NCBI GenBank assembly: GCA_019058315.1
Contig: JAHPZH010000005.1
Coordinates: 96,001 to 160,000, forward strand
Source: Candidatus Helarchaeota archaeon
Lineage (GTDB): Archaea; Asgardarchaeota; Lokiarchaeia; Helarchaeales; RDOG01
Reading direction: 5' to 3'
Length of the DNA stretch: 64,000 nucleotides
Part shown: piece after piece, positions 50,924-62,663 of the stretch
Numbering within the stretch: the first letter of the stretch is position 1
Layout: every line of letters starts with the position of its first letter
The notes under the pieces: model-generated
What the model was told of the DNA's origin: nothing
The model's input: the letters and a program-made list of their open reading frames with translations, nothing else
The model's database searches: none
Translations under genes and position numbers: made by a program

Positions 50924-53900
50924 TTAACTATTTTTATTATTTTCGAATCCGAATTTCCAATCTAATCGTTCCAAATATTCATTTAATGAGCTCACTGTAT
51001 ATCCTTTTCTTCTAATACTTTCTATTGCATCAACTAGAGCTATTGCTAATTGTAAATTCGTCAAAACAGGAATATTAAATTCTACAGCCATTCTTCTAAT
51101 ATCATATTCGTCGTTTATTACTTTAAGGTATTTTTCAACATTTTTAGTTGTAGGAATATTAATAATCATATCTAATTTGTTATTAGTAATATAATCCCTG
51201 ATATTTGGCTTTACTTCAGATTCTGAAAGTTTATGAAGGATTGTTACATCAATTTTATTCTTTTCAAGTACTTCAGCTGTATGATCAGTTGCAAAAATAT
51301 TGAAATTCAGTTTATGTAATTTTTGAACTAAGGGTAGGATTTGACGTTTTAATAATTCTCCTCCAACGGTAACTAATACGTTTCCTTTCTCTATTGGGAC
51401 TTCTAAATCGGTAGCAATCAGTCCTTTTAATAAAGCTTCATGAAATGTTTCACCATAACAAGCTGCCTCTCCAGTAGAAGCCATTTCAACTCCAAGAACT
51501 GGATCAGCACCACTTAGCCTCATGAAGGAAAACATGGGAACTTTTATTCCATAAAAATCTATTCCAGATGAAGGTTTATTATGGAAACCGGTTACCTCAT
51601 ATAATTTTTGTCCCAGCATTACTGTGGCTGCAAGTGTCATTAAATTAACACCCTTCGATTTAGAAACAAATGGCATTGAGCGAGATGAGCGAAGATTACA
51701 CTCAATGACATATACTTCATCATCCTTAACGAGGTATTGAATGTTAAATGGTCCCTTTATTTTTAGAGCTTTTGCGATTTGTCCAGTTTTTTTCCTAATT
51801 CTATTGTTTATCGCTATCGGAATAGTATAAGGAGGTATGGACATAGTGGCATCTCCTGAATGGACACCGGCATTTTCTATATGTTCTATCACAGCCCCAA
51901 TAAACACATCTTCGCCATCACATACTCCATCTACGTCAACCTCCCGTGCATCTTCCATATACTTACTAATTACTACTGGAAATTCTTTAGAAATCATTGC
52001 TGCTAAATCCAAATATTCTTTAAGTTGACTCTTAGAATAAGCAACTCGCATTGCAGCACCAGATAGTACATAAGATGGACGAACTAAAATAGGATATCCA
52101 ACTTCATTGGCAAACTTAAAAGCATCATCTTTAGTTGTAAGCTGGCTCCATTTTGGTTGTTTAATGCCTAACTCATCTAATAATTTACTAAATTTAGAAC
52201 GGTCCTCTGCTCTGTCGATATCCCTTCCTTCAGTCCCAATAACTTCTACCCTTCCAGTTCTATAAATTTGTTGAGTTGAAGCTAACTTTGGTGCCAAATT
52301 ATTCGAAACTTGACCTCCAACAGAAACCACAACACCCCTAGGATATTCTTTTTCATAAATATCTAAAACTCTTTCAAAATTAATTTCCTCAAAATATAAT
52401 TTGTCACTCATATCATAATCAGTTGACACGGTTTCAGGATTATAATTTATTATAATAACTTCTTTCATTCCTAAATCCCTAAAAGCCCAAGCAATATTTA
52501 CTGTTCCCCAATCGAATTCAACTGAGCTACCAATTCGGTAAGTACCACTTCCAAGTACTATAATCTTACTAAAATCTTGTTTATTAGTAAAAACTAAATC
52601 ATCTTCTTTGCCTCCATAAGTAGCATAAAGATAATTTGTTTGGGCAGGCCACTCGGCAGCTAAAGTATCTATTTGTTTTATAACGGGAGAACAATCTATT
52701 TTATTTCTTATCCTTCTAATAGTTATTTCATCAGTATTAAGACATATAGCAATTTGAACATCAGAAAAACCATATTTCTTTGCTTTCTGAATAGCCTTAT
52801 GTAATTCTTTAGGGGCTGAATGCAGACTAAGACTTTTCAACCATGCTTCAATATCAACAATATTTTTTATTTTGTAAAGGAACCATTTATCTATGCCAGT
52901 TAACTGAAAAATTTCATCAATACTCATTCCTGCTTTCATTGCATCTGGAATAATTAGAAATCTCTGGTCTGTCGGATTTATCAATATATCCTTTAATTCT
53001 TCTAATGAATAATCATAACCATCATTACATACCAGACCAATTTTACCAATTTCTAACATTCGGATTGCCTTTTGAAATGCCTCTTCGAAATTTCTACCAA
53101 TTGCCATAACTTCTCCGACACTCTTCATTTGCGTCCCTATCCGTCGACTGACTTTTCCAGTGAATTTCTGTAAATCCCACCGAGGTATTTTTACAACAAG
53201 ATAGTCCAATGCTGGCTCAAAACATGCTGTTGTAACATTTGTCACTCTGTTAATTAACTCTGGCAATGTATATCCTAAAGCTAATTTTGCAGCAATATAA
53301 GCTAGTGGATAACCTGTTGCTTTCGAAGCCAGAGCTGATGACCTTGATAATCTTGCATTAACTTCAATAGCTCGAAATTCAAATTCATCAGAAGGACCTG
53401 AATACATGCCATACTGAATATTGCATTCACCAACAATACCCAGTTCTCGTATAACCCTTATCGAGGCAGCCCGTAATTCGTGGTATTCTTTATTAGTAAG
53501 AGTTTGAGAAGGTGCAATAACAACACTTTCACCTGTATGAATCCCCATAGGGTCGAAATTTTCCATATTACATACCGTTATACAATTGTCTGCATAATCT
53601 CGGACTACTTCATACTCTATTTCTTGCCAGTACGGTCTTTCTAAATATTCTTCAATTAATACTTGATGAATCATGCTTTGAGCAAGACCCGTTCCTACAA
53701 TTTGTCTTAATTCATCCTCATCATGAGCAACTCCAGATCCTTTTCCTCCTAAAGTATACGCAACCCGTACCATAATTGGATATCCTATTTCGTCAGCAAT
53801 TTTTAAAGCTTCTTCCATGGAAGTAGCACTGCCACTCTTTGCTACTTCTACATTTGACTTTAACATGGCTTGTCTAAATAATTCCCTGTCTTCTGTTGCC

Positions 53901-54271
53901 TCAATTGCAGAAATAGGCGTACCAAGAACTTTAACACCATATTTTTTAAAGATTCCTTTTTGCTTTAGCTCTACACCTACATTTAAGGCAGTTTGACCAC
54001 CAAATGCTAACATTATAGAATCAGGTTTTTCCTTTTTAATTACTTCTTCAACAAATTCAACTGTAATTGGTAATAAATATACAGTACCAGCCAGTCGGGG
54101 ATCGGTCTGAATAGTTGCAATATTTGGATTAATTAGAATGCATTCAATGCCCTCTTCACGAACAGCCTTTACAGCTTGACTTCCACTATAATCAAATTCT
54201 CCAGCTTGACCGATTTTGATGGCTCCTGAACCCACGACCAGAACTTTCTTTACCCAATCAAATTTAGGCAT
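50924..54271 (-). CDS. carB: Carbamoyl-phosphate synthase large subunit
   Basis: GSGAIKIGQAGEFDYSGSQA, NPNIATIQTD, duplicated ATP-grasp domains, C-terminal MGS domain. Confidence 0.98.
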   Translation of the reverse strand: MPKFDWVKKVLVVGSGAIKIGQAGEFDYSGSQAVKAVREEGIECILINPNIATIQTDPRLAGTVYLLPITVEFVEEVIKKEKPDSIMLAFGGQTALNVGVELKQKGIFKKYGVKVLGTPISAIEATEDRELFRQAMLKSNVEVAKSGSATSMEEALKIADEIGYPIMVRVAYTLGGKGSGVAHDEDELRQIVGTGLAQSMIHQVLIEEYLERPYWQEIEYEVVRDYADNCITVCNMENFDPMGIHTGESVVIAPSQTLTNKEYHELRAASIRVIRELGIVGECNIQYGMYSGPSDEFEFRAIEVNARLSRSSALASKATGYPLAYIAAKLALGYTLPELINRVTNVTTACFEPALDYLVVKIPRWDLQKFTGKVSRRIGTQMKSVGEVMAIGRNFEEAFQKAIRMLEIGKIGLVCNDGYDYSLEELKDILINPTDQRFLIIPDAMKAGMSIDEIFQLTGIDKWFLYKIKNIVDIEAWLKSLSLHSAPKELHKAIQKAKKYGFSDVQIAICLNTDEITIRRIRNKIDCSPVIKQIDTLAAEWPAQTNYLYATYGGKEDDLVFTNKQDFSKIIVLGSGTYRIGSSVEFDWGTVNIAWAFRDLGMKEVIIINYNPETVSTDYDMSDKLYFEEINFERVLDIYEKEYPRGVVVSVGGQVSNNLAPKLASTQQIYRTGRVEVIGTEGRDIDRAEDRSKFSKLLDELGIKQPKWSQLTTKDDAFKFANEVGYPILVRPSYVLSGAAMRVAYSKSQLKEYLDLAAMISKEFPVVISKYMEDAREVDVDGVCDGEDVFIGAVIEHIENAGVHSGDATMSIPPYTIPIAINNRIRKKTGQIAKALKIKGPFNIQYLVKDDEVYVIECNLRSSRSMPFVSKSKGVNLMTLAATVMLGQKLYEVTGFHNKPSSGIDFYGIKVPMFSFMRLSGADPVLGVEMASTGEAACYGETFHEALLKGLIATDLEVPIEKGNVLVTVGGELLKRQILPLVQKLHKLNFNIFATDHTAEVLEKNKIDVTILHKLSESEVKPNIRDYITNNKLDMIINIPTTKNVEKYLKVINDEYDIRRMAVEFNIPVLTNLQLAIALVDAIESIRRKGYTVSSLNEYLERLDWKFGFENNKNS

Positions 54272-55490
54272 TTAGACTCCTCCGTAATTCTTTAATATAA
54301 TTATCAATTAGATATTCTGCGTCCACAGGTCCAGGAGTGTGTTCAGGATGAAATTGAACAGAATAAGCAAACTGCTTTTCATGTTTTATCCCTTCATTTG
54401 TTTTATCATTGGCATTCATAAACCAAAGTTTAAGACCTGTTCCTTTCATTGACTCATTATCTACAGAAAAACCATGATTTTGAGTGGTGATATAACATCT
54501 ATCAGTCTCCAAATCTATTGCTGGTTGATTTTGAGAACGATGACCATATTTTAATTTGAAAGTCTTAGCCCCCATAGATAGCGCAAAAAGTTGATTACCT
54601 AAACAAATTCCCATAAAGGGTAATTTTTCTTCTAATATTAGAGTTCTTAATGTTTCAATCGTTTTTACACATTTAGCAGGATCTCCTGGTCCATTTGTAC
54701 AAAAAAGACCATTAGGCTCATATTTTAAAATTTCATCAGCTGAAGCATCATATGGAAATCTGATTATATCTGCTCCATTTTTTAACAAGACTTTTAAAAT
54801 ATTAAATTTCATTCCAGTATCAATCAAAGCAACTTTAATCTTGGAATCATTTTCATAAATAATCGGTTCCTGAATTGATACTTCCTTAACTAAATCTCGA
54901 TCATTGGGATCTTCAACATGTTTTACTTCTTTTTTTAACGCTTCGATATCTGGTTCTTCTCCCTTCTCACAAACCTGAACAATTCCTAACATAACTCCAT
55001 GAACTCTTAATTTCTTTGTCAATGCTCTTGTATCAATTTCTTCAATACCTGGAATGTTTTCTTTTTTTAACCATTCATCTAAACTCATTTTACTTTCCCA
55101 ATGGTTAGGTCTCTTACAAAGTTCGTGGATTATTAGAGCTGTTGGTTTGATTCCGTTTTTTATTTTTATATCCTCGTATTTTGGGGCATCATCACCTGGT
55201 TTTATTATCGAAAAATCACTCTCAAAAAAATCAGGGATATTCCATTTATCTCTCTTATTAGGATCGGGTACACCATAATTACCAATTAAGGGATATGTTA
55301 AAGTTAAAATTTGACCTTGATATGATGGATCAGTTAAACTTTCTGGATATCCTACCATTCCAGTATTAAAAACAACCTCACCAGATATTTTTTTAGAAGC
55401 TCCGAAACCAATACCTTCGAAAACCGTACCATCGCTTAGAATTAATACGGCTTGCCTACTATTTGCATCTTCATCTAGCATACAAATCAT
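54264..55490 (-). CDS. carA: Carbamoyl-phosphate synthase small subunit
   Basis: GEVVFNTGMVGY.E.LTDPSY, NGPGDP, GICLGNQ, QNHGF, QFHPE. Confidence 0.98.
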   Translation of the reverse strand: MICMLDEDANSRQAVLILSDGTVFEGIGFGASKKISGEVVFNTGMVGYPESLTDPSYQGQILTLTYPLIGNYGVPDPNKRDKWNIPDFFESDFSIIKPGDDAPKYEDIKIKNGIKPTALIIHELCKRPNHWESKMSLDEWLKKENIPGIEEIDTRALTKKLRVHGVMLGIVQVCEKGEEPDIEALKKEVKHVEDPNDRDLVKEVSIQEPIIYENDSKIKVALIDTGMKFNILKVLLKNGADIIRFPYDASADEILKYEPNGLFCTNGPGDPAKCVKTIETLRTLILEEKLPFMGICLGNQLFALSMGAKTFKLKYGHRSQNQPAIDLETDRCYITTQNHGFSVDNESMKGTGLKLWFMNANDKTNEGIKHEKQFAYSVQFHPEHTPGPVDAEYLIDNYIKELRRSLNA

Positions 55491-55566
55491 TTTTAAAATG
55501 ATAATTTTTTAAAAAAAAGAATTCGTTATAGATAGAACTAATTTTATAATATAACGAATGATACTT

Positions 55567-56295
55567 CTATTCTAATTCTTCAGGAATAATAAAGCATTGG
55601 ACTGTTAATAGGCAAAATATTGTCATAAATGCTTGCCATTCATAAAATGGGGACGATAAATAAAATGGTGTAATTGGATTAGGGATAAAGCGACCAGTTC
55701 TATTAGTCGGAGCGAGAATTACCCATAATAATCCACAAATTAGGCAATATATTAAAAATGAAAGGTAAATAACTAATAAAATCTTAGAAAACGTAATGGT
55801 TTTGCCCTCTGATAGATTATTTTTTAACATTAGAATTGCAGAAAAAAATGACATAAGAAAAAACCCTAAAAAAATAAATCCTGCATTTATAAGATGGATA
55901 AGCTTAAATATACTCGGTTCATAAAAGTTTGGGATTAATCCAATGAGTATTGAGCCAATTGAATATGTAAAGAAAAGAAATGCTATTAACTTTGCGTCAA
56001 ACTTGTTTATTTTAGAATATTTTTTATATATATATTGGATGATAGGTAATGTTAAAATTCCCAATGAAATAAAACCTAAACTAAAAAAAATAAATCCAAT
56101 TGGGTTTTCTTCAGGCCACCCCAATCGGCTTATCATAGAAGTCGTCCAGTTATACGGATAAATCGGAATATAAGGGTATAATAATCTCGCCATAAATAAA
56201 AAAAATAGAAATGTTCCAATTATGAAGGGTACATAATAATACGTAAGACTTTTTTTTGAAATCATCCCTTGAAAAATTTCTTTTAATTTCGGCAT
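55567..56295 (-). CDS. Multi-pass membrane protein (DUF998/Frag1-like)
   Basis: YNWTTSMISRLG...NP, H..AG motifs; about 6 TM; ATG at 56295 sits 1 nt after the Rab stop, whereas the ORF-track start at 56448 overlaps the GTPase gene. Confidence 0.7.
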   Translation of the reverse strand: MPKLKEIFQGMISKKSLTYYYVPFIIGTFLFFLFMARLLYPYIPIYPYNWTTSMISRLGWPEENPIGFIFFSLGFISLGILTLPIIQYIYKKYSKINKFDAKLIAFLFFTYSIGSILIGLIPNFYEPSIFKLIHLINAGFIFLGFFLMSFFSAILMLKNNLSEGKTITFSKILLVIYLSFLIYCLICGLLWVILAPTNRTGRFIPNPITPFYLSSPFYEWQAFMTIFCLLTVQCFIIPEELE

Positions 56296-56296
56296 A

Positions 56297-56839
56297 TCAA
56301 ATTCCTTTATGTATTGATTTTTGCCAATATTCAAATGCAAGTTTAGCCAATTCATTAAAAGCCTCCTCCACACCTTGACCTTCTTTGGCTGATGTTTCAA
56401 TATAGGGACAAGGAACTTGGTCTGCAAAAGATTTTGCATCTTTTTCACGTATAGTCCTCATAATCTCCAGATCCACTTTATTTCCAATGAGAACTATGGG
56501 AATCCTCCCTGTAAAGCTCCAAAGATCCTTTATCCATTTAAGAATATTAGGACTGAATGTTGTATAACGAGTTAAATCAAAGACAACTAAAGCTCCTGAA
56601 GCTTCTTTATAAAATGCTTGGCGTATAAATTTAAATCTTTCTTGTCCTGCAATATCCCAAATGGAGAGAGTTATTTGATTCTCGCCATTATTGAGGGATA
56701 CATCCTTCACAAAGAGGTCACAACCTACAGTCATCTTATATTCCTTTTGAAAGACATCATTGACGAATCTTTTAATCATAGTGGTTTTTCCAACAGCTGC
56801 ATCCCCTATCAATAAAATTTTAAATTTATATCTTACCAT
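56297..56839 (-). CDS. Rab-like small GTPase
   Basis: FKILLIGDAAVGKTT, YKMTVGCD, IWDIAGQERF, GNKVDL, ETSAK; ATG at 56839; no C-terminal Cys. Confidence 0.93.
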   Translation of the reverse strand: MVRYKFKILLIGDAAVGKTTMIKRFVNDVFQKEYKMTVGCDLFVKDVSLNNGENQITLSIWDIAGQERFKFIRQAFYKEASGALVVFDLTRYTTFSPNILKWIKDLWSFTGRIPIVLIGNKVDLEIMRTIREKDAKSFADQVPCPYIETSAKEGQGVEEAFNELAKLAFEYWQKSIHKGI

Positions 56840-56855
56840 TTTAAATACTCGATTT

Positions 56856-58127
56856 TTATTTTTTCTTCGTTGAAAATGCAGCATAAGCTTTTAAATATAC
56901 TTTAACCGGGATTATTTTTGGATTACGTCTAAAACTAGCCGGAATTTGAGCACCACAGCGAGAACATAAATCAGAACTTCTAAGCCAATCTTTAAATGCG
57001 TCTGCATGGGCAGGATGTTTACAATTAGGGCATAAGATTATACCCCTTCCTTTATCTGAAGGTTTAGGTAATTGAAAACAGAATATGCATTTAAAATCCT
57101 CAACGGTTATTACTCCTGCTACTGGCAATAATTCTTTTAATTTTCGACTAATTTGAGGCTTTTTTTTCTGATCAGGCACTTGAACACGGGATTGCCTTTG
57201 AACTCTTGTAATTCGAACTGTGGGTTTTTGGCGACGAGGTCTTGATACAGTAACAGTGGGCTTTTGACTAGGGCGACGATTTGTTGGAATATTTGATCTT
57301 GGTCTAATAGGGGTTCTCCTTCGTGTAGTTGGGATATTAAAATCCCTTAATTGTGGAGGAGGTCTCATTTCTGTAGTTATCTCTGGCATAGTATAGGGTG
57401 CAGTTGATTTCCCATACCTAATTGATAAAATTAATGAATAAATACATAAGAAAATTACAATTAAACTAGGATTTTGGTGAGTAGGTTTCAATGGAAAATA
57501 AAAAAAGTCAATATAATAATAAAAAAGGATAAGATAGACAAATTCAACCATAAATATATAAAAAGTACATAGATTTCCAAACTTTCTACCAGTTGTCGAT
57601 TTTTGGCCTATATGGACTACGTGATATTTTTTAAAACATGAATATAGTGAATATAAAGAATAAAGAAAGTAGGGAGCGGCAAATATAATATTCCATGTAC
57701 TCAAATATAATTCGCTCCCAGTCAAGATATTCCATTCCAGAATATTAGTAAAATTACCCCACAAGCTAAATAACATTCCCATAGATAGCGTGCCGGAAAT
57801 GAAAAAAGAAGTATTATGTGGTGAATTGAATTCACGGTGGTATTTTATTAATGAGAAAAATTTGATAGTAAAACAAAACCAAAATCCTATCAATAACCAA
57901 GAAATAAACAGAGCGGAAACATTTCCGATAGCTCTATTAAATTCTAAAGAAAAATAAAGAATATATACAAACACATTTATTGTATTTAAATTGAAATAAT
58001 CATAAATTATCATAAAAGCTAGAAATGTGAGATAATCGTTCTTCGATACAATTAAAGAAGTGGTATTTATTACCGCAATTATTAAAAAAAGCAAAAATAT
58101 GATAAAATACCATCGTTTTTTAACCAA
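56856..58127 (-). CDS. Polytopic membrane protein with C-terminal RING-like finger (putative E3 ligase)
   Basis: About 7 TM helices, Arg/Pro-rich linker, CIFC...CPNCKHPAH...DWL...CSRC; inside the ubiquitin-like operon. Confidence 0.8.
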   Translation of the reverse strand: MVKKRWYFIIFLLFLIIAVINTTSLIVSKNDYLTFLAFMIIYDYFNLNTINVFVYILYFSLEFNRAIGNVSALFISWLLIGFWFCFTIKFFSLIKYHREFNSPHNTSFFISGTLSMGMLFSLWGNFTNILEWNILTGSELYLSTWNIIFAAPYFLYSLYSLYSCFKKYHVVHIGQKSTTGRKFGNLCTFYIFMVEFVYLILFYYYIDFFYFPLKPTHQNPSLIVIFLCIYSLILSIRYGKSTAPYTMPEITTEMRPPPQLRDFNIPTTRRRTPIRPRSNIPTNRRPSQKPTVTVSRPRRQKPTVRITRVQRQSRVQVPDQKKKPQISRKLKELLPVAGVITVEDFKCIFCFQLPKPSDKGRGIILCPNCKHPAHADAFKDWLRSSDLCSRCGAQIPASFRRNPKIIPVKVYLKAYAAFSTKKK

Positions 58128-58164
58128 GAAATAAATACCACCAGGGATTTATTAGCATTATCAT

Positions 58165-58968
58165 TTACTCTTCATCATATTCAAGATATATCGCTTTTCC
58201 CTCGATAATCGGGTCTATAAACTTCAGTAGATCGGGTAATATTTTAGCACTTAATGCACCTTTTACTTCGAAAGGAACAGCAAACCATTTTCTAGTTTTC
58301 AAGTTTGCCTTAAAAATATTAAATCCAAATGAAGTTCCATCAATCATGTATGGGTCAATTACAAGAGCAATAGATTTTTTCCATAGTCTTTGATATCTAC
58401 TTTGAGTACCAAAATCTTCTGTGCTCATAAAAAGACCGTAGGATGGGTGTGAATGATACCACCCACATATAAATAAATTTCTGTTTCTTATATCATTAAA
58501 TGCCCTTACGTAATTTTTATAGTCCTTAATTTCAGCATATATGGCCGAACCGTGCCCCATTGGATAGGCATCTTCTATATGGAGCGCTTTACCGTTTTCT
58601 AATTTTCCAGCTAAAAGCCCTATTACTTCAACCCATTCATCCCTAGGAATGTTAGAATTAGCATATTTAAGTGCATGACTAGCAATTTTTAGAACTGATC
58701 CGACTGAAATTTGGATAATATCTGCACTTTTTGAAACTTCGATAGGGAGCGGTTTTTCAACTGATTTTTCAATAATAACAGTCTTTTTCTTTGTAGGTTT
58801 AGAAATATCTATAGTAGGTTCCTTTTCCTCAGATTTTAATTCGGTATATATTTCCTCAAGTAACTCTTTTTTTAACTCTTCTTTAATTTTCTTTTTAAAT
58901 GCTCTTACATCAATATGCTTGCTATTAGCATCATTATTATTATCCATTAAAAATCCTCTTTTTACCAT
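58165..58968 (-). CDS. JAMM/MPN+ metalloisopeptidase (Rpn11/CSN5-like)
   Basis: VEVIGLLAG, GWYHSHPSYGLFMSTED..TQ, ALVIDP. Confidence 0.93.
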   Translation of the reverse strand: MVKRGFLMDNNNDANSKHIDVRAFKKKIKEELKKELLEEIYTELKSEEKEPTIDISKPTKKKTVIIEKSVEKPLPIEVSKSADIIQISVGSVLKIASHALKYANSNIPRDEWVEVIGLLAGKLENGKALHIEDAYPMGHGSAIYAEIKDYKNYVRAFNDIRNRNLFICGWYHSHPSYGLFMSTEDFGTQSRYQRLWKKSIALVIDPYMIDGTSFGFNIFKANLKTRKWFAVPFEVKGALSAKILPDLLKFIDPIIEGKAIYLEYDEE

Positions 58969-59489
58969 TTTTTATTAGCATACTTTTTAACTAAATGTTT
59001 TACTTTCTTATCGAACTCTTTAGGATCCTTCATCATTTCAACTGCTGCTTTTTTATTGAACACATCAGTTGGATTAATGAATTTTCCTCTCGTATTCAAC
59101 ATAGCTATAATTGCCTCTACAACAGTAACTGCAGTCTTTGAAGGACTCCAACCACCTTTTTTACCTATATAATTTGGATCAATAAGCGCAAGGCAAATAT
59201 TTCTTTGTCCTGGATATTCATGAGGTTTTGGCCAAAAATTGGGGTGCCATAAACCTGTATGCATACGTACAAATGGAGGATGTCGTGGATATTCAGCGGG
59301 AAATCTCAATTCAAGTCTAAAAAGACCTCCTTGATAGGGAGTTTTCTTAGGTCCTTTTATAGTTATGGCAAGATGATCAAGACTTTTTCTTTTAGGGTTG
59401 AATGGTTTTAACTGAACGATACTTCCAGTTTTTAATAATTTTTTTAGTTGTGCAACATCTTGAGAGATTCGACTGCTTCTTAAACTCAT
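58962..59489 (-). CDS. Ubiquitin-conjugating enzyme E2 (UBC)
   Basis: GPKKTPYQGGLF, FPAEYP..PP, WHPN...ICL catalytic Cys, WSPS. Confidence 0.93.
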   Translation of the reverse strand: MSLRSSRISQDVAQLKKLLKTGSIVQLKPFNPKRKSLDHLAITIKGPKKTPYQGGLFRLELRFPAEYPRHPPFVRMHTGLWHPNFWPKPHEYPGQRNICLALIDPNYIGKKGGWSPSKTAVTVVEAIIAMLNTRGKFINPTDVFNKKAAVEMMKDPKEFDKKVKHLVKKYANKKW

Positions 59490-59622
59490 TTTATCACCTT
59501 ATTTTTCTATTAAGATTTTCTAAATTATTTAAATTATTAAAAATTTTCATTAAATTTATAATTTGTTTTATATTTTCACCTAAATAATTCAAATAAAAAT
59601 TAAAATTATACATTTTTTCTCA

Positions 59623-60843
59623 TCATGTGATAACTAAAGTTATAAAAATTTCTCCACCCTTAAATCCGACAGCAGTAATAAGTTCTAGTTGTCTTAAGTC
59701 ATTTTTTTTCGGTGTTAGGTCTAAATCAATTTCTTTTACCATATCGAAATCCATTATTGTTAACATCGGTTCCATTTCTGGGTCGGGTTTAAAGCCTTTA
59801 TTTATTAGCAAATTAATAATATCATGCATTGGAGCTTTATGGTGGATATTAAGTTTCACACGCCTAACATCATTACTACATTGAATACAATTTGGATTTC
59901 TCTTTTTTTCAATGGAATAAAATTTCATTGTCATACCATTATAAATAACATAAGATTTAATTGGTTCTCCTAATTTCTTATTTCCTGCAATCCAATTTAA
60001 AATTTTAATTGTTTCATGTGACTGGAGAGATGCAATCACTGCATTAATGGTTATTATCCCCGGATCATGCCTATCCAAAAGTTTAACTACTTCGGATTGA
60101 GTAAATAGGGGTAAAAAATTAAATTTTTTTACAAGTTCATTTGCTTCCTTTCGAATGAAGTTAATCTCCTTACTTTTTTTTGGGTCAGGATCTCGATTAT
60201 ATTTTTCATTAAAAAACATAGTGGATTTAATCACACAATGAACTCTTTTTCTAGGTATTCCTACAACAGTACAAGCTGCCATTTCATCCATTTCTGAAGG
60301 AGGGGGTGGATAACATTCGAAACAAGCATTTTCATATGGAAATATTGTATATACATGACCATTATATCCAGAGACACCGCCATCAAGAAGTGGCTTATTA
60401 AAACGTACACATTGTGCATTTAAATTGAGTCTAGCATTTATTGAGTCCAATCCACCAACAACAACATCAGCTGCTGCGTAAACTTCCGGTTCAAGTCTTT
60501 CGAGTGAAGTATGATAACTTTTAATTGTAATATTGGGATTAATTTTTTTCAATTTCTTCATAGCGGCTGTTGCTTTGGGCTCACCCATTTTAGCATCAGA
60601 AAATAAAATTTGTCTATTTAGATTAGAGTATTCTATTATATCCAAATCCACAAGATCGAGATGACCAACTCCCAACATTGCCAGATTTTTAGCAACTTCG
60701 CACCCAAGACCTCCTACACCCGCAATTAACACTCTTGAATCTTTAATTATTTTTTGTCTCCAGCCAGCAAGCCTAAATTGACGGTTATATAATTCTCTTT
60801 CTTGTGAATTTAATTCTTTGTTAAAAAAATCAGATTCATCCAT
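59623..60843 (-). CDS. Ubiquitin-like activating enzyme E1 (UBA2/UBA3-like)
   Basis: YNRQ, GVGGLGCE, DLDIIEYSNLNRQ, CFEC, catalytic ACTVVGIPR...HC, CIQC, C-terminal extra domain. Confidence 0.93.
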   Translation of the reverse strand: MDESDFFNKELNSQERELYNRQFRLAGWRQKIIKDSRVLIAGVGGLGCEVAKNLAMLGVGHLDLVDLDIIEYSNLNRQILFSDAKMGEPKATAAMKKLKKINPNITIKSYHTSLERLEPEVYAAADVVVGGLDSINARLNLNAQCVRFNKPLLDGGVSGYNGHVYTIFPYENACFECYPPPPSEMDEMAACTVVGIPRKRVHCVIKSTMFFNEKYNRDPDPKKSKEINFIRKEANELVKKFNFLPLFTQSEVVKLLDRHDPGIITINAVIASLQSHETIKILNWIAGNKKLGEPIKSYVIYNGMTMKFYSIEKKRNPNCIQCSNDVRRVKLNIHHKAPMHDIINLLINKGFKPDPEMEPMLTIMDFDMVKEIDLDLTPKKNDLRQLELITAVGFKGGEIFITLVIT

Positions 60844-60976
60844 TTTTTACACCAATTTTTAGATAGATAACTCATCTCAATAATATCAATTTTATTAAAA
60901 AAAAAGGTTGAAAGAAAGTAATTTTAGATTTAAAAAGTAATAATTTTTTATATTTAAGTTACAATAGAATTTAGTT

Positions 60977-61330
60977 TTACCCTGCTGTGCTAGCGGGAAT
61001 AAGAAGTACAGTGTCTCCGTCTTTTACATTATAGTCCATTAAAGGACTTGCGTCATCCATTGTGACTCCACCAAATGATAAGTGAAAATCACCTGGATTT
61101 AACCCAAATAGATTTCCTACAGTTTGCTTAATGGCACTAATATTATTGCCAGTATCTACCATTAATTTTTGCTTTTTCTCGCCCGGTCCAATCGTACTCA
61201 TAAAGAAAAGATTAACTTGATCACCACTAACTCCCGCTTTTGGTGTTTTAGATGCTATACCAGGACTTTTAGATGATGGTTCTTCTAATTCTTCATCAAA
61301 ATCTTCTGATTCCTCTAACATATTTAACAT
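60977..61330 (-). CDS. Ubiquitin-like protein with acidic N-terminal extension, ending ...PASTAG
   Basis: Beta-grasp consensus ISAIKQ.V...GL....HLSFGG..MDD..PL.DYNVKDGDTVLL; first gene of the E1/E2/JAMM cluster. Confidence 0.88.
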   Translation of the reverse strand: MLNMLEESEDFDEELEEPSSKSPGIASKTPKAGVSGDQVNLFFMSTIGPGEKKQKLMVDTGNNISAIKQTVGNLFGLNPGDFHLSFGGVTMDDASPLMDYNVKDGDTVLLIPASTAG

Positions 61331-61460: not shown

Positions 61461-62663
61461 ATGAATTATCATTTCGTGAATTATATGAAAGATAAACAAC
61501 CCCCAAAATATCAGATCGCCGATAAAACCCCAACTTCCGAAGAATACCCTCCTATAAGCGAGAAATTGCTTAAAAAATTACAAAAAGAACGATTAAATGT
61601 TGAAAAAGAGTGGAAAAAGCTAGAAGAAGAACGGAATAAATTGGAGAAAGTCATTAAAAAAATGGAAAGTTATGGAGCTACAATCGAAGATCTTGAAAAG
61701 AAGAGAAAAGAAAAAGAATATGAAGTAAAGGATCTTTTAAGGGAAAAAGATCAGTTAAATAATGAATTAGATAGAATAAAAAAAGAAATTGATAATGAAA
61801 AAAGTAGATTAGCTTCCCAAAAAGACAAGATGGATATTATGAAAGAAAAAGTCCGTTCAAAAGATAAAGAATTAGATAAAAAAATGAGTGAGATAAAAAG
61901 TAAAGAAATAGAATTAATTCGTTCAAAAGAACCTGTGGAGAAAGAAATTGCAAATTTAGAAAGACAGAAGGACAGAGAGAAATCACAATTAGAAGATCTT
62001 GGTAAAAAAATTGGGAAATATAAAAATGATGTTAAAGATCTCCAAGAAGATAGAGATCGTTTAAAAAATGAGCGGGATAAATTAGAAAAAGAGGTTGTAC
62101 GAGAGAAGCAATTACTTTCTGATGAGAGAAATAAAATTGAGAAAGAAAAAGATGACTTAAGCAGGAAAAAGAAAGACTTAGATAAAAGAATTAATGATTT
62201 AGAGGGGAAGAAAAAGGATTTAAGAAATATAAAAGATGAGCTTAGTAAAGAAAAAAATGACTTAATAAAAACTAGAGAGAAAGAACAAGCACGGGTGAGG
62301 GATTTAACCAATAAAATTCCAAAGTTGGAAAGCGAAATAAATTCATTAGAGAAAAAAATTCAAGATTTAAATGTTAAATTGAGCGATTTAAAGAACAATA
62401 AAAGATTATTAGAAAATGAAATTAATAGAATGTCAAAAGAGATAGAAAATAATAAGGCCAAAATGCAAAACGAAATGAAAAATATTGAAAATGAAAAAAC
62501 AAAGATAAATAGCGAAAAAGATAATATCAAACGTGAACGGGATAAATTAAAAGAAGAAAAAAGTAATTTAGAAAATGAACGTAAAAATTTAGAAGAACAA
62601 ATAAGAAAAATGAAAACTATTAAGAAAGAAAAAATAAGAACTAAAACCCCTTTAGGTTATTAG
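61461..62663 (+). CDS. Long, uninterrupted coiled-coil protein
   Basis: About 350 aa of K/E-rich heptads with an internal duplicated block (EKE.EVKDLLREKDQL.NE.D..KKEI / KNDVKDLQEDRDRLKNERDKLEKEV). Confidence 0.8.
   Translation: MNYHFVNYMKDKQPPKYQIADKTPTSEEYPPISEKLLKKLQKERLNVEKEWKKLEEERNKLEKVIKKMESYGATIEDLEKKRKEKEYEVKDLLREKDQLNNELDRIKKEIDNEKSRLASQKDKMDIMKEKVRSKDKELDKKMSEIKSKEIELIRSKEPVEKEIANLERQKDREKSQLEDLGKKIGKYKNDVKDLQEDRDRLKNERDKLEKEVVREKQLLSDERNKIEKEKDDLSRKKKDLDKRINDLEGKKKDLRNIKDELSKEKNDLIKTREKEQARVRDLTNKIPKLESEINSLEKKIQDLNVKLSDLKNNKRLLENEINRMSKEIENNKAKMQNEMKNIENEKTKINSEKDNIKRERDKLKEEKSNLENERKNLEEQIRKMKTIKKEKIRTKTPLGY

Follow-up and report, generated by a model that had tools for sequence, protein, structure and literature searches.

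Does a ubiquitin operon that runs straight into the gene of a Rab-like GTPase record an old connection between ubiquitin conjugation and membrane trafficking, or a recent meeting of genes along one archaeal chromosome? The question is raised by a locus of Candidatus Helarchaeota archaeon (GCA_019058315.1, G000) that lies in the 64,000-nt stretch of DNA analysed here, called the window, whose positions are used throughout. Seven genes, all on the minus strand, encode a ubiquitin-like modifier (Ubl), an activating enzyme (E1), a conjugating enzyme (E2), a JAMM/MPN metalloprotease, a RING protein with a transmembrane domain (TM-RING), a Rab-like GTPase and a DUF998-like membrane protein. The initial annotation had the gene positions right, as well as the spacings, namely a 7-nt overlap of E2 and JAMM, 16 nt from the RING stop to the Rab ATG and 1 nt from the Rab stop to the DUF998 ATG. 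Arguments for archaeal roots of eukaryote-type membrane trafficking draw on Asgard ubiquitin operons as well as on Rab-like GTPases, and a conserved physical link of the two would open that idea to testing. In our view the locus is likely to be a conserved five-gene Asgard ubiquitin operon, to which the Rab and DUF998 genes are a recent, lineage-restricted addition, neither integral nor ancestral to it.

The operon of five genes with the membrane RING is widely conserved and belongs to a known kind of ubiquitin system. The E2, JAMM and RING genes are syntenic in 19 of 19 relatives' loci. A pattern scan with one genome per species returned 136 relatives of the RING protein, and among the best 80 loci, which were taken for comparison (1.13 Mb), all sufficiently long contigs hold Ubl, E1, E2, JAMM and RING in that order. 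By profile search the TM-RING family occurs in 116 of the 301 sampled Asgard genomes, spread over eight GTDB families; furthermore, 20 loci from other Asgard families contain all five genes, with the order E2-JAMM-RING constant and Ubl-E1 sometimes on the other side. The E2-JAMM-TM-RING core, with its AG-ending modifier and nearby E1, is among the most stably conserved neighbourhoods of eukaryotic signature protein (ESP) genes in Asgard archaea.

The proteins themselves appear fit for a complete cascade. Read by eye in the translations, the motifs are intact in E1 (GxGxxG, and the Cys in ...AACTVVGIP...), in E2 (HPN...C, as ...WHPNFW...RNICLAL) and in the JAMM protein (HSHPSYGLFMSTED, corresponding to HxH-x7-S-x2-D). 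Identity of E1 is 64-72% in class-level relatives and about 45% in other Asgard families, that of E2 is 73-83% across Lokiarchaeia loci, and all loci examined have the JAMM gene between E2 and RING. The Ubl carries an acidic, Ser/Lys-rich N-terminal extension and ends in ...IPASTAG without a propeptide; its penultimate residue is Ala and not Gly, and the C-terminal Gly is available for activation. The exact STAG end is found in 46 of 66 relatives, the remainder adding one to four residues (I, YF, YV, K, C and others), and these longer tails presumably need trimming by the JAMM protease of the operon. The latter is likely to be a deconjugase, and where relatives have a Ubl with a short C-terminal extension it is also likely to process it. 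Most Lokiarchaeia loci (L043-L121) have two extra Ubl paralogues, one per strand, some 1.5-2.3 kb upstream of the operon Ubl; both are missing in the window lineage, where a divergent coiled-coil gene is found instead.

The ligase candidate deserves a closer description. Pfam gives it two RING matches (E 3.3e-4 and 8.2e-3; 20.7 and 16.8 bits) that stay under the gathering thresholds. An AlphaFold model built from a 37-sequence alignment (mean predicted local distance difference test, pLDDT, 71.2) predicts eight helices of 16-29 residues each within residues 2-238, the first three at low confidence, then a disordered, basic Arg/Pro/Thr-rich linker (residues 243-322) and a RING/U-box fold (residues 339-423). 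The ligands C347, C350, C366, C369, H374, C388 and C391, together with D376, are invariant in the 37 sequences. In a Foldseek search of the PDB the top 50 matches are all RING/U-box domains or complexes that contain them, with probabilities up to 1.00 and a best E of 0.03, and residues 339-423 give a VIA Z of 7.6 to 3lrq. These fold matches and the invariant Cys/His ligands justify the label of polytopic RING E3 candidate. With the five families present and their motifs intact, there is support for the proposal of the initial annotation that the system for Ubl conjugation is complete and membrane-localised and has a polytopic RING E3. The AG-ending Ubl, E1, E2, JAMM and TM-RING would constitute a conjugation and deconjugation system with a membrane-anchored RING-type ligase, whose zinc finger is most probably cytoplasmic and within reach of E2~Ubl.

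The membrane domain of this protein is conserved beyond its hydrophobic character. In the 37 sequences, residues 74-170 contain the invariant W83, N105, F109, S143 and P152 and a near-invariant 'NSPHNT' loop (E99/S102/H104). Such polar and aromatic residues suggest that the domain does more than anchor the protein. Its structural matches are weak ones to helical bundles, those to HRD1 chains included (Z 6.8 and 6.6, root-mean-square deviation 4.7-4.8 over 152-154 residues), which fall in the range usual for such bundles and are too weak for interpretation. A literature search of limited coverage, which is no proof of novelty, found no published description of the polytopic domain of an Asgard RING protein. 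In another Asgard family (L268:3403-5176), the gene after TM-RING encodes a polytopic protein of 192 aa, similar to the TM-RING membrane domain but with no zinc finger, the gene order being E2-JAMM-RING-TM-...-Ubl-E1.

How widely do the two remaining genes follow this unit? The Rab/DUF998 continuation is a recent arrangement in one small clade of Helarchaeales. The seven genes followed by carAB recur as a whole in one other assembly, L037 (GCA_013375355.1), and the contig of a second near relative, L039 (GCA_048940975.1), starts inside the RING gene and reads RING-Rab-DUF998-carAB. The seven proteins of L037/L039 are 76-91% identical to those of the window (about 85%), with a synonymous divergence (dS) of 0.23-1.07, and the surrounding 25 kb are syntenic at 75-90% identity. 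Because these are close relatives with the whole region syntenic, the shared gene order is expected from recent ancestry alone.

Outside this clade the linkage disappears. No Rab or DUF998 match was found in the 19 relatives' loci within about 1.5 kb downstream of RING (about 0.6 kb in L009), where the downstream gene is usually convergent. None stands beside the operon in the 80 species-representative loci either, 74 of which extend at least 1.5 kb downstream of RING; in 61 of 77 cases the first downstream open reading frame (ORF) there runs in the opposite direction. The 20 loci from other Asgard families have no Rab beside the five genes. In G001, a genome of the same family, the operon is present at 47-57% identity (RING about 27%) and is followed by convergent genes. 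To catch divergent GTPases that BLAST might miss, a profile of 80 G-domains from the window genome was applied to all ORFs of 103 loci (1.39 Mb). It detected small GTPases in four of them: the two near relatives, G001, where the gene lies 4.5 kb upstream, and G176, where it lies 1.1 kb downstream behind an opposite-strand gene. The last two, neither of them adjacent, are the only ones in the 101 loci outside the near clade. The Rab gene is unlinked in all 119 loci outside that clade, G001 included, and the idea put forward in the initial annotation, of a precursor of ubiquitin-Rab coupling in which the GTPase is modified or recruited, finds no comparative support, the linkage being seen only in L037 and L039. 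Being young and narrow, it should not be used to argue that ubiquitin and Rab were connected ancestrally.

The GTPase has all the motifs of its family: G1 GDAAVGKT, G3 WDIAGQE with the catalytic Gln, G4 GNKVD and G5 ETSAK. Among solved structures it comes closest to the Thorarchaeota Rab 7ezb (E 1.2e-39), with Rab11 and Rab1 next, and the top 60 solved relatives are all Rab/Ypt/Sec4. The missing prenylation Cys pointed out in the initial annotation is indeed absent: the tail, ...FEYWQKSIHKGI in the window and ...YWQKTNT in L037/L039, has no Cys in its last 30 residues. Because the C-terminal Cys motif for geranylgeranylation is missing, we call the protein Rab-like rather than a true Rab. In an A-run close to the 3' end of the gene (window 56297-56320), an indel of 1 nt alters the tail, which ends in ...QKSIHKGI in the window and in ...QKTNT in both relatives.

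Crude gene calling gave about 4850 genes in the window genome, about 81 of them for small GTPases, and one of these (C7:87454-87945) is 68% identical to the operon-linked Rab. This copy is the conserved one: each of the other six genomes of the order has at least one strong match to the Rab at 47-66% identity, one in five genomes and three in G006. In a maximum-likelihood tree the operon-linked Rab and its L037/L039 counterparts form a clade (support 99/99) on a long stem of 0.34, compared with 0.11-0.18 for the conserved copies. The operon-linked gene is probably a faster-evolving, lineage-restricted duplicate of a Rab-like GTPase carried by the whole order. Around the nearest Rab relatives, 80 metagenomic loci (352 kb) contained no ubiquitin-system or DUF998 gene, and a metagenome scan for further operon-linked copies returned none above 67% identity.

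The last gene encodes a protein with six long membrane helices and a conserved first extramembrane loop, YPYxWTTSMISRLGWPEENPIG. The window protein has no Pfam match even at E 10; PF06197 (DUF998) is matched by 8 of its 17 aligned homologues (31-82% identical), with a best E of 3.9e-11, and homologues at 82% and 53% identity carry the NCBI name DUF998. Its model (pLDDT 90.4) resembles, in the ESM Atlas, a DUF998 cluster (TM 0.71/0.80) and a Frag1/CWH43-like cluster (TM 0.76/0.69), and a Foldseek search of the PDB gave nothing under E 0.5. Membership in DUF998 is assigned by transitive homology, from the NCBI names, the PF06197 matches of the homologues and the predicted fold. To our knowledge no function has been described for DUF998, so that the label carries little information.

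Beyond the near clade, the five nearest DUF998 homologues (P0004, P0005, P0007, P0013 and P0015; 42-58% identity) lie in unrelated neighbourhoods with no adjacent GTPase, and the surroundings of P0016 (31% identity) include a Ras-family gene on the other strand, at a distance of about 1 kb. More distant DUF998-like genes directly follow a Rab-like gene in the same direction in G006 (41-nt gap) and G038 (88-nt gap) (L124; L125); divergent DUF998-like/Rab-like pairs are found in seven genomes of the genus g7 (L144, L147-L150, L152, L154), and in G034 the two genes are about 1 kb apart. The Rabs beside these distant genes are other paralogues, on long branches (31-38% identity), and not orthologues of the window Rab. 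An old conserved Rab-DUF998 pair was considered and rejected, since neither the closest DUF998 homologues nor the nearest relatives of the Rab have the partner.

As for transcription, no run of five or more T occurs between JAMM and RING, RING and Rab, or Rab and DUF998, the first intergenic T-run downstream of E2 being the T8 after DUF998, and these counts are only a rough guide in a genome of 30% G+C, where T-runs also lie within membrane-protein genes. Further upstream there is a T9 run between Ubl and E1 and two T5 runs between E1 and E2. Because no T-run is met until after DUF998, the Rab and DUF998 genes are probably co-transcribed with E2-JAMM-RING in the narrow clade. Shine-Dalgarno (SD)-like motifs stand ahead of E1, E2 (AAGGTGAT, directly upstream), RING and DUF998, and there is none at the start of Rab or of the first gene, Ubl. 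The RING-Rab spacer measures 15-16 nt in L037 and L039, with ...GTAT(T/C)TAAAATGG kept. The Rab-DUF998 gap is 1 nt in the window and 11 nt in both relatives; given the A-run indel, the 1-nt coupling is particular to the window genome. Likewise, the E2/JAMM overlap of the window is a 16-nt gap in L037. A complex prediction of TM-RING, the DUF998-like protein and Rab, with alignments as input and Rab as the scored chain, returned a score of 0.00, 'no answer', and counts neither way.

In the explanation that we favour, the Rab and DUF998 genes would have been inserted recently between the RING gene and carAB, in the window genome and its two near relatives, the GTPase probably being the extra, faster-evolving copy described above. 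Both genes would be read through from the E2-JAMM-RING transcript and retained by purifying selection, presumably with no functional tie to the ubiquitin system. Some adjacency of a GTPase is expected by chance, small GTPases being so numerous in this genome and many operons having been looked at, and most Asgard ESP genes lie outside conserved neighbourhoods and are prone to duplication (Liu et al., bioRxiv 10.1101/2020.10.19.343400).

Several observations nevertheless weigh against this explanation. The spacers are very short (16 nt; 1-11 nt) and no T-run intervenes from E2 to the end of DUF998, the simplest reading of which is one transcript. Both added genes evolve under purifying selection, with a ratio of nonsynonymous to synonymous divergence (dN/dS) of 0.15 for Rab against L037 and of 0.38 for DUF998; this selection and the probable co-transcription leave room for a functional link that is local and recent. 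Resolution of the Rab tree is poor, with 9 of its 14 inner forks open, deeper ones included, and for this reason the duplication scenario is unproven. As far as the crude gene calls show, a tight co-directional polytopic neighbour is missing from all the other 80 small GTPases of the genome, whereas the operon-linked Rab has one on each side. Moreover, a Hodarchaeia cluster comprises ubiquitin, UEV-Vps23, the polytopic Yip1 and a Rab-like GTPase (bioRxiv 10.1101/2023.07.25.550441), so that ubiquitin genes beside a Rab-like and a polytopic protein are already in print for another lineage. In the window genome (contig C1:200021-202996; L277:2522-5497), the gene of a 301-aa Ras-family protein whose P-loop is degenerate lies 61 nt ahead of one for a 170-aa soluble RING-like protein. 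With the Hodarchaeia cluster and this pair, RING-GTPase neighbourhoods can be said to recur. The soluble RING-like protein has the signature CPxC...AH.D...CPxC, as in TM-RING, and its gene precedes that of a proteasome-activating AAA ATPase; it is found in 38 of 41 relatives, with a GTPase-like neighbour only in the window genome and G001.

Operon membership often reflects shared function, and the membrane RING system could have recruited the Rab paralogue and the DUF998-like protein as substrate, regulator or membrane receptor. The cysteine-less Rab would then reach the membrane via Ubl modification or via the two polytopic proteins, in a young, lineage-specific ubiquitin-GTPase module. The tight co-directional spacing without an intergenic T-run from E2 to DUF998 would fit this, and so would the retention of the arrangement and of the 15-16-nt spacer in three genomes at dS 0.2-1.1 under purifying selection. 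The faster divergence of this Rab copy than of its conserved paralogue is compatible with a new function, the GTPase is the only one of the genome tightly flanked by polytopic proteins, and the Hodarchaeia cluster of ubiquitin, Yip1 and Rab-like genes offers a precedent (bioRxiv 10.1101/2023.07.25.550441). However, the linkage occurs in none of the 119 loci outside the near clade, the same family included, and retention in three genomes says little, since the whole region is syntenic. The Rab start, having no SD-like motif, leaves room for a start of its own, and newly formed operons often join unrelated genes. On balance we judge such a recruitment quite unlikely, and its most explicit form, in which a duplicated Rab and a Frag1/DUF998-fold protein were captured into an ancient membrane-RING transcription unit and now work with it, very unlikely indeed. 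Were the latter true, the ligase might, for instance, tag or dock a GTPase lacking a lipid anchor, an independent and recent prokaryotic coupling of ubiquitin and GTPase at the membrane.

The two genes might also have come together already, as an old, self-contained pair of GTPase and membrane partner that is mobile as a pair and landed beside the ubiquitin operon. The 1-11-nt gap and the AGGA motif before the DUF998 start, kept in three genomes, speak for it, as do the DUF998-like genes beside Rab-like genes in G006, G038 and the seven g7 genomes and at about 1 kb in G034. At one GTPase per about 50-70 kb, however, a few neighbours by chance are to be expected among about 50 loci; the distant cases involve different Rab paralogues, and the seven g7 cases come from one genus and represent few independent events. 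The five closest outside DUF998 homologues have no adjacent GTPase, that near P0016 being about 1 kb off and on the other strand, and Rab relatives at 57-67% identity have no DUF998 neighbour, which makes the mobile pair unlikely. Alternatively, Rab and DUF998 could be transcribed from a promoter of their own, within the 3' end of RING, position then being all that they share with the operon. The final 60 nt of the RING gene do contain AT-rich, TATA-like stretches (GTATATTTAAAAGC and AAAAAATAAAAA), and the Rab start resembles that of the first gene, Ubl, in having no SD-like motif. But such AT-rich motifs are everywhere at 30% G+C, and no terminator-like T-run separates RING from Rab, so that we regard this mere juxtaposition, too, as improbable. 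The reading that we retain remains that of a conserved five-gene operon with a recent, local addition.

The coordinates of the locus are collected in Table 1, where the Rab and DUF998 starts are those kept in L037 and L039, the longest listed ORFs beginning further upstream. The carA and carB genes lie downstream of the DUF998-like gene on the same strand, and the divergent gene upstream of Ubl (window 61461-62663) encodes a 400-aa coiled-coil protein that is 75% identical in L037. The carA/carB genes of L037 (L037:8900-13397, against window 50924-55490) are only 45%/65% identical to those of the window, compared with 88%/95% for L039. With the L037 flanks at 75-91% identity and the L039 carAB this close, carAB was replaced in the L037 lineage, in what looks like an in-place exchange for a foreign copy. 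Transfer of the seven-gene block as a unit was considered and rejected, the other flanking genes being 75-90% identical and the L039 carAB close.

Table 1. Features of the ubiquitin operon and its continuation, in window coordinates.
Feature	Position	Strand	Length	Pfam match or remark
Ubl	60977-61330	-	117 aa	PF00240, E 8.9e-8
E1 (ThiF/Uba-type)	59623-60843	-	406 aa	PF00899 ThiF, E 2.4e-63
E2	58962-59489	-	175 aa	PF00179 UQ_con, E 2.9e-26
JAMM/MPN metalloprotease	58165-58968	-	267 aa	PF01398 JAB, E 5.1e-13
TM-RING	56856-58127	-	423 aa	Weak Pfam RING matches, below gathering score
RING-Rab spacer, AAATCGAGTATTTAAA	56840-56855	-	16 nt	No T-run, no SD-like motif
Rab-like GTPase	56297-56839, ATG at 56839	-	180 aa	PF00071 Ras family, E 1.5e-49
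DUF998-like membrane protein	55567-56295, ATG at 56295	-	242 aa	No direct Pfam match
T8 run, candidate archaeal terminator	55511-55518	-		49 nt past the DUF998 stop, ahead of carA

Comparison with known systems places the two parts of the locus differently. The DUF998-like protein shares its predicted six-helix fold and conserved first loop with DUF998 (PF06197) and with the Frag1/DRAM/Sfk1 fold (PF10277), itself falling under Pfam detection. The Rab-like protein has intact G motifs and no prenylation Cys in common with Thorarchaeota Rab 7ezb (PMC10933270), from which it differs in being a lineage-restricted paralogue; Asgard small GTPases are usually without a prenylation Cys. The better-known conserved neighbourhoods of Asgard Rab-like genes contain Roadblock/LAMTOR1-like and DENN proteins (bioRxiv 10.1101/2020.10.19.343400), whereas the window Rab adjoins ubiquitin genes.

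Gene clusters that join ubiquitin to ESCRT (endosomal sorting complex required for transport) genes are known in Asgard archaea (PMC9192718), and in Helarchaeia an ESCRT-linked E1/E2/RING cascade ubiquitylates UEV-Vps23 (bioRxiv 10.1101/2023.07.25.550441). The window locus resembles these clusters in that ubiquitin genes adjoin trafficking-type genes, and the Hodarchaeia cluster further in combining a Rab-like with a polytopic protein. It has, however, no ESCRT or UEV gene inside or adjoining the operon, its membrane partner is DUF998 and not Yip1, and its link to Rab is confined to near relatives. Two further E2-like genes are present elsewhere in the window genome, which marks the operon as a separate ubiquitin system.

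The nearest counterpart of the five-gene unit is the operon of Candidatus Caldiarchaeum subterraneum, which comprises ubiquitin, E1-like plus E2-like proteins and a small RING finger protein with an adjacent Rpn11/JAMM gene and has been reconstituted in vitro (PMC5654768), and archaeal ubiquitylation operons of this kind have already been reported across Asgard archaea. Both operons cluster the same five protein families, with the logic of an E1-E2-RING cascade and a JAMM protease alongside. The window operon differs in that its JAMM gene lies inside, between E2 and RING, and its Ubl ends in Ala-Gly, mostly without a propeptide, whereas the Caldiarchaeum modifier has Gly-Gly and a propeptide. 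Furthermore, the Caldiarchaeum RING protein is small and soluble, while the window protein couples its RING domain to a polytopic membrane region of about 240 residues and an extended basic linker. The firmer result of our analysis is this five-gene unit with its predicted membrane-embedded ligase, and finding the membrane substrates of the latter would be worthwhile. In eukaryotes, polytopic RING ligases of the Hrd1 and MARCH types have a membrane domain of several helices first and then a cytoplasmic RING, to which the E2 is recruited. No sequence relationship of TM-RING to these ligases was detected, and its zinc finger is distinguished by seven clear Cys/His ligands and an invariant Asp; the architecture of membrane domain and RING is nonetheless the same, and by analogy the archaeal protein probably works in a similar way.

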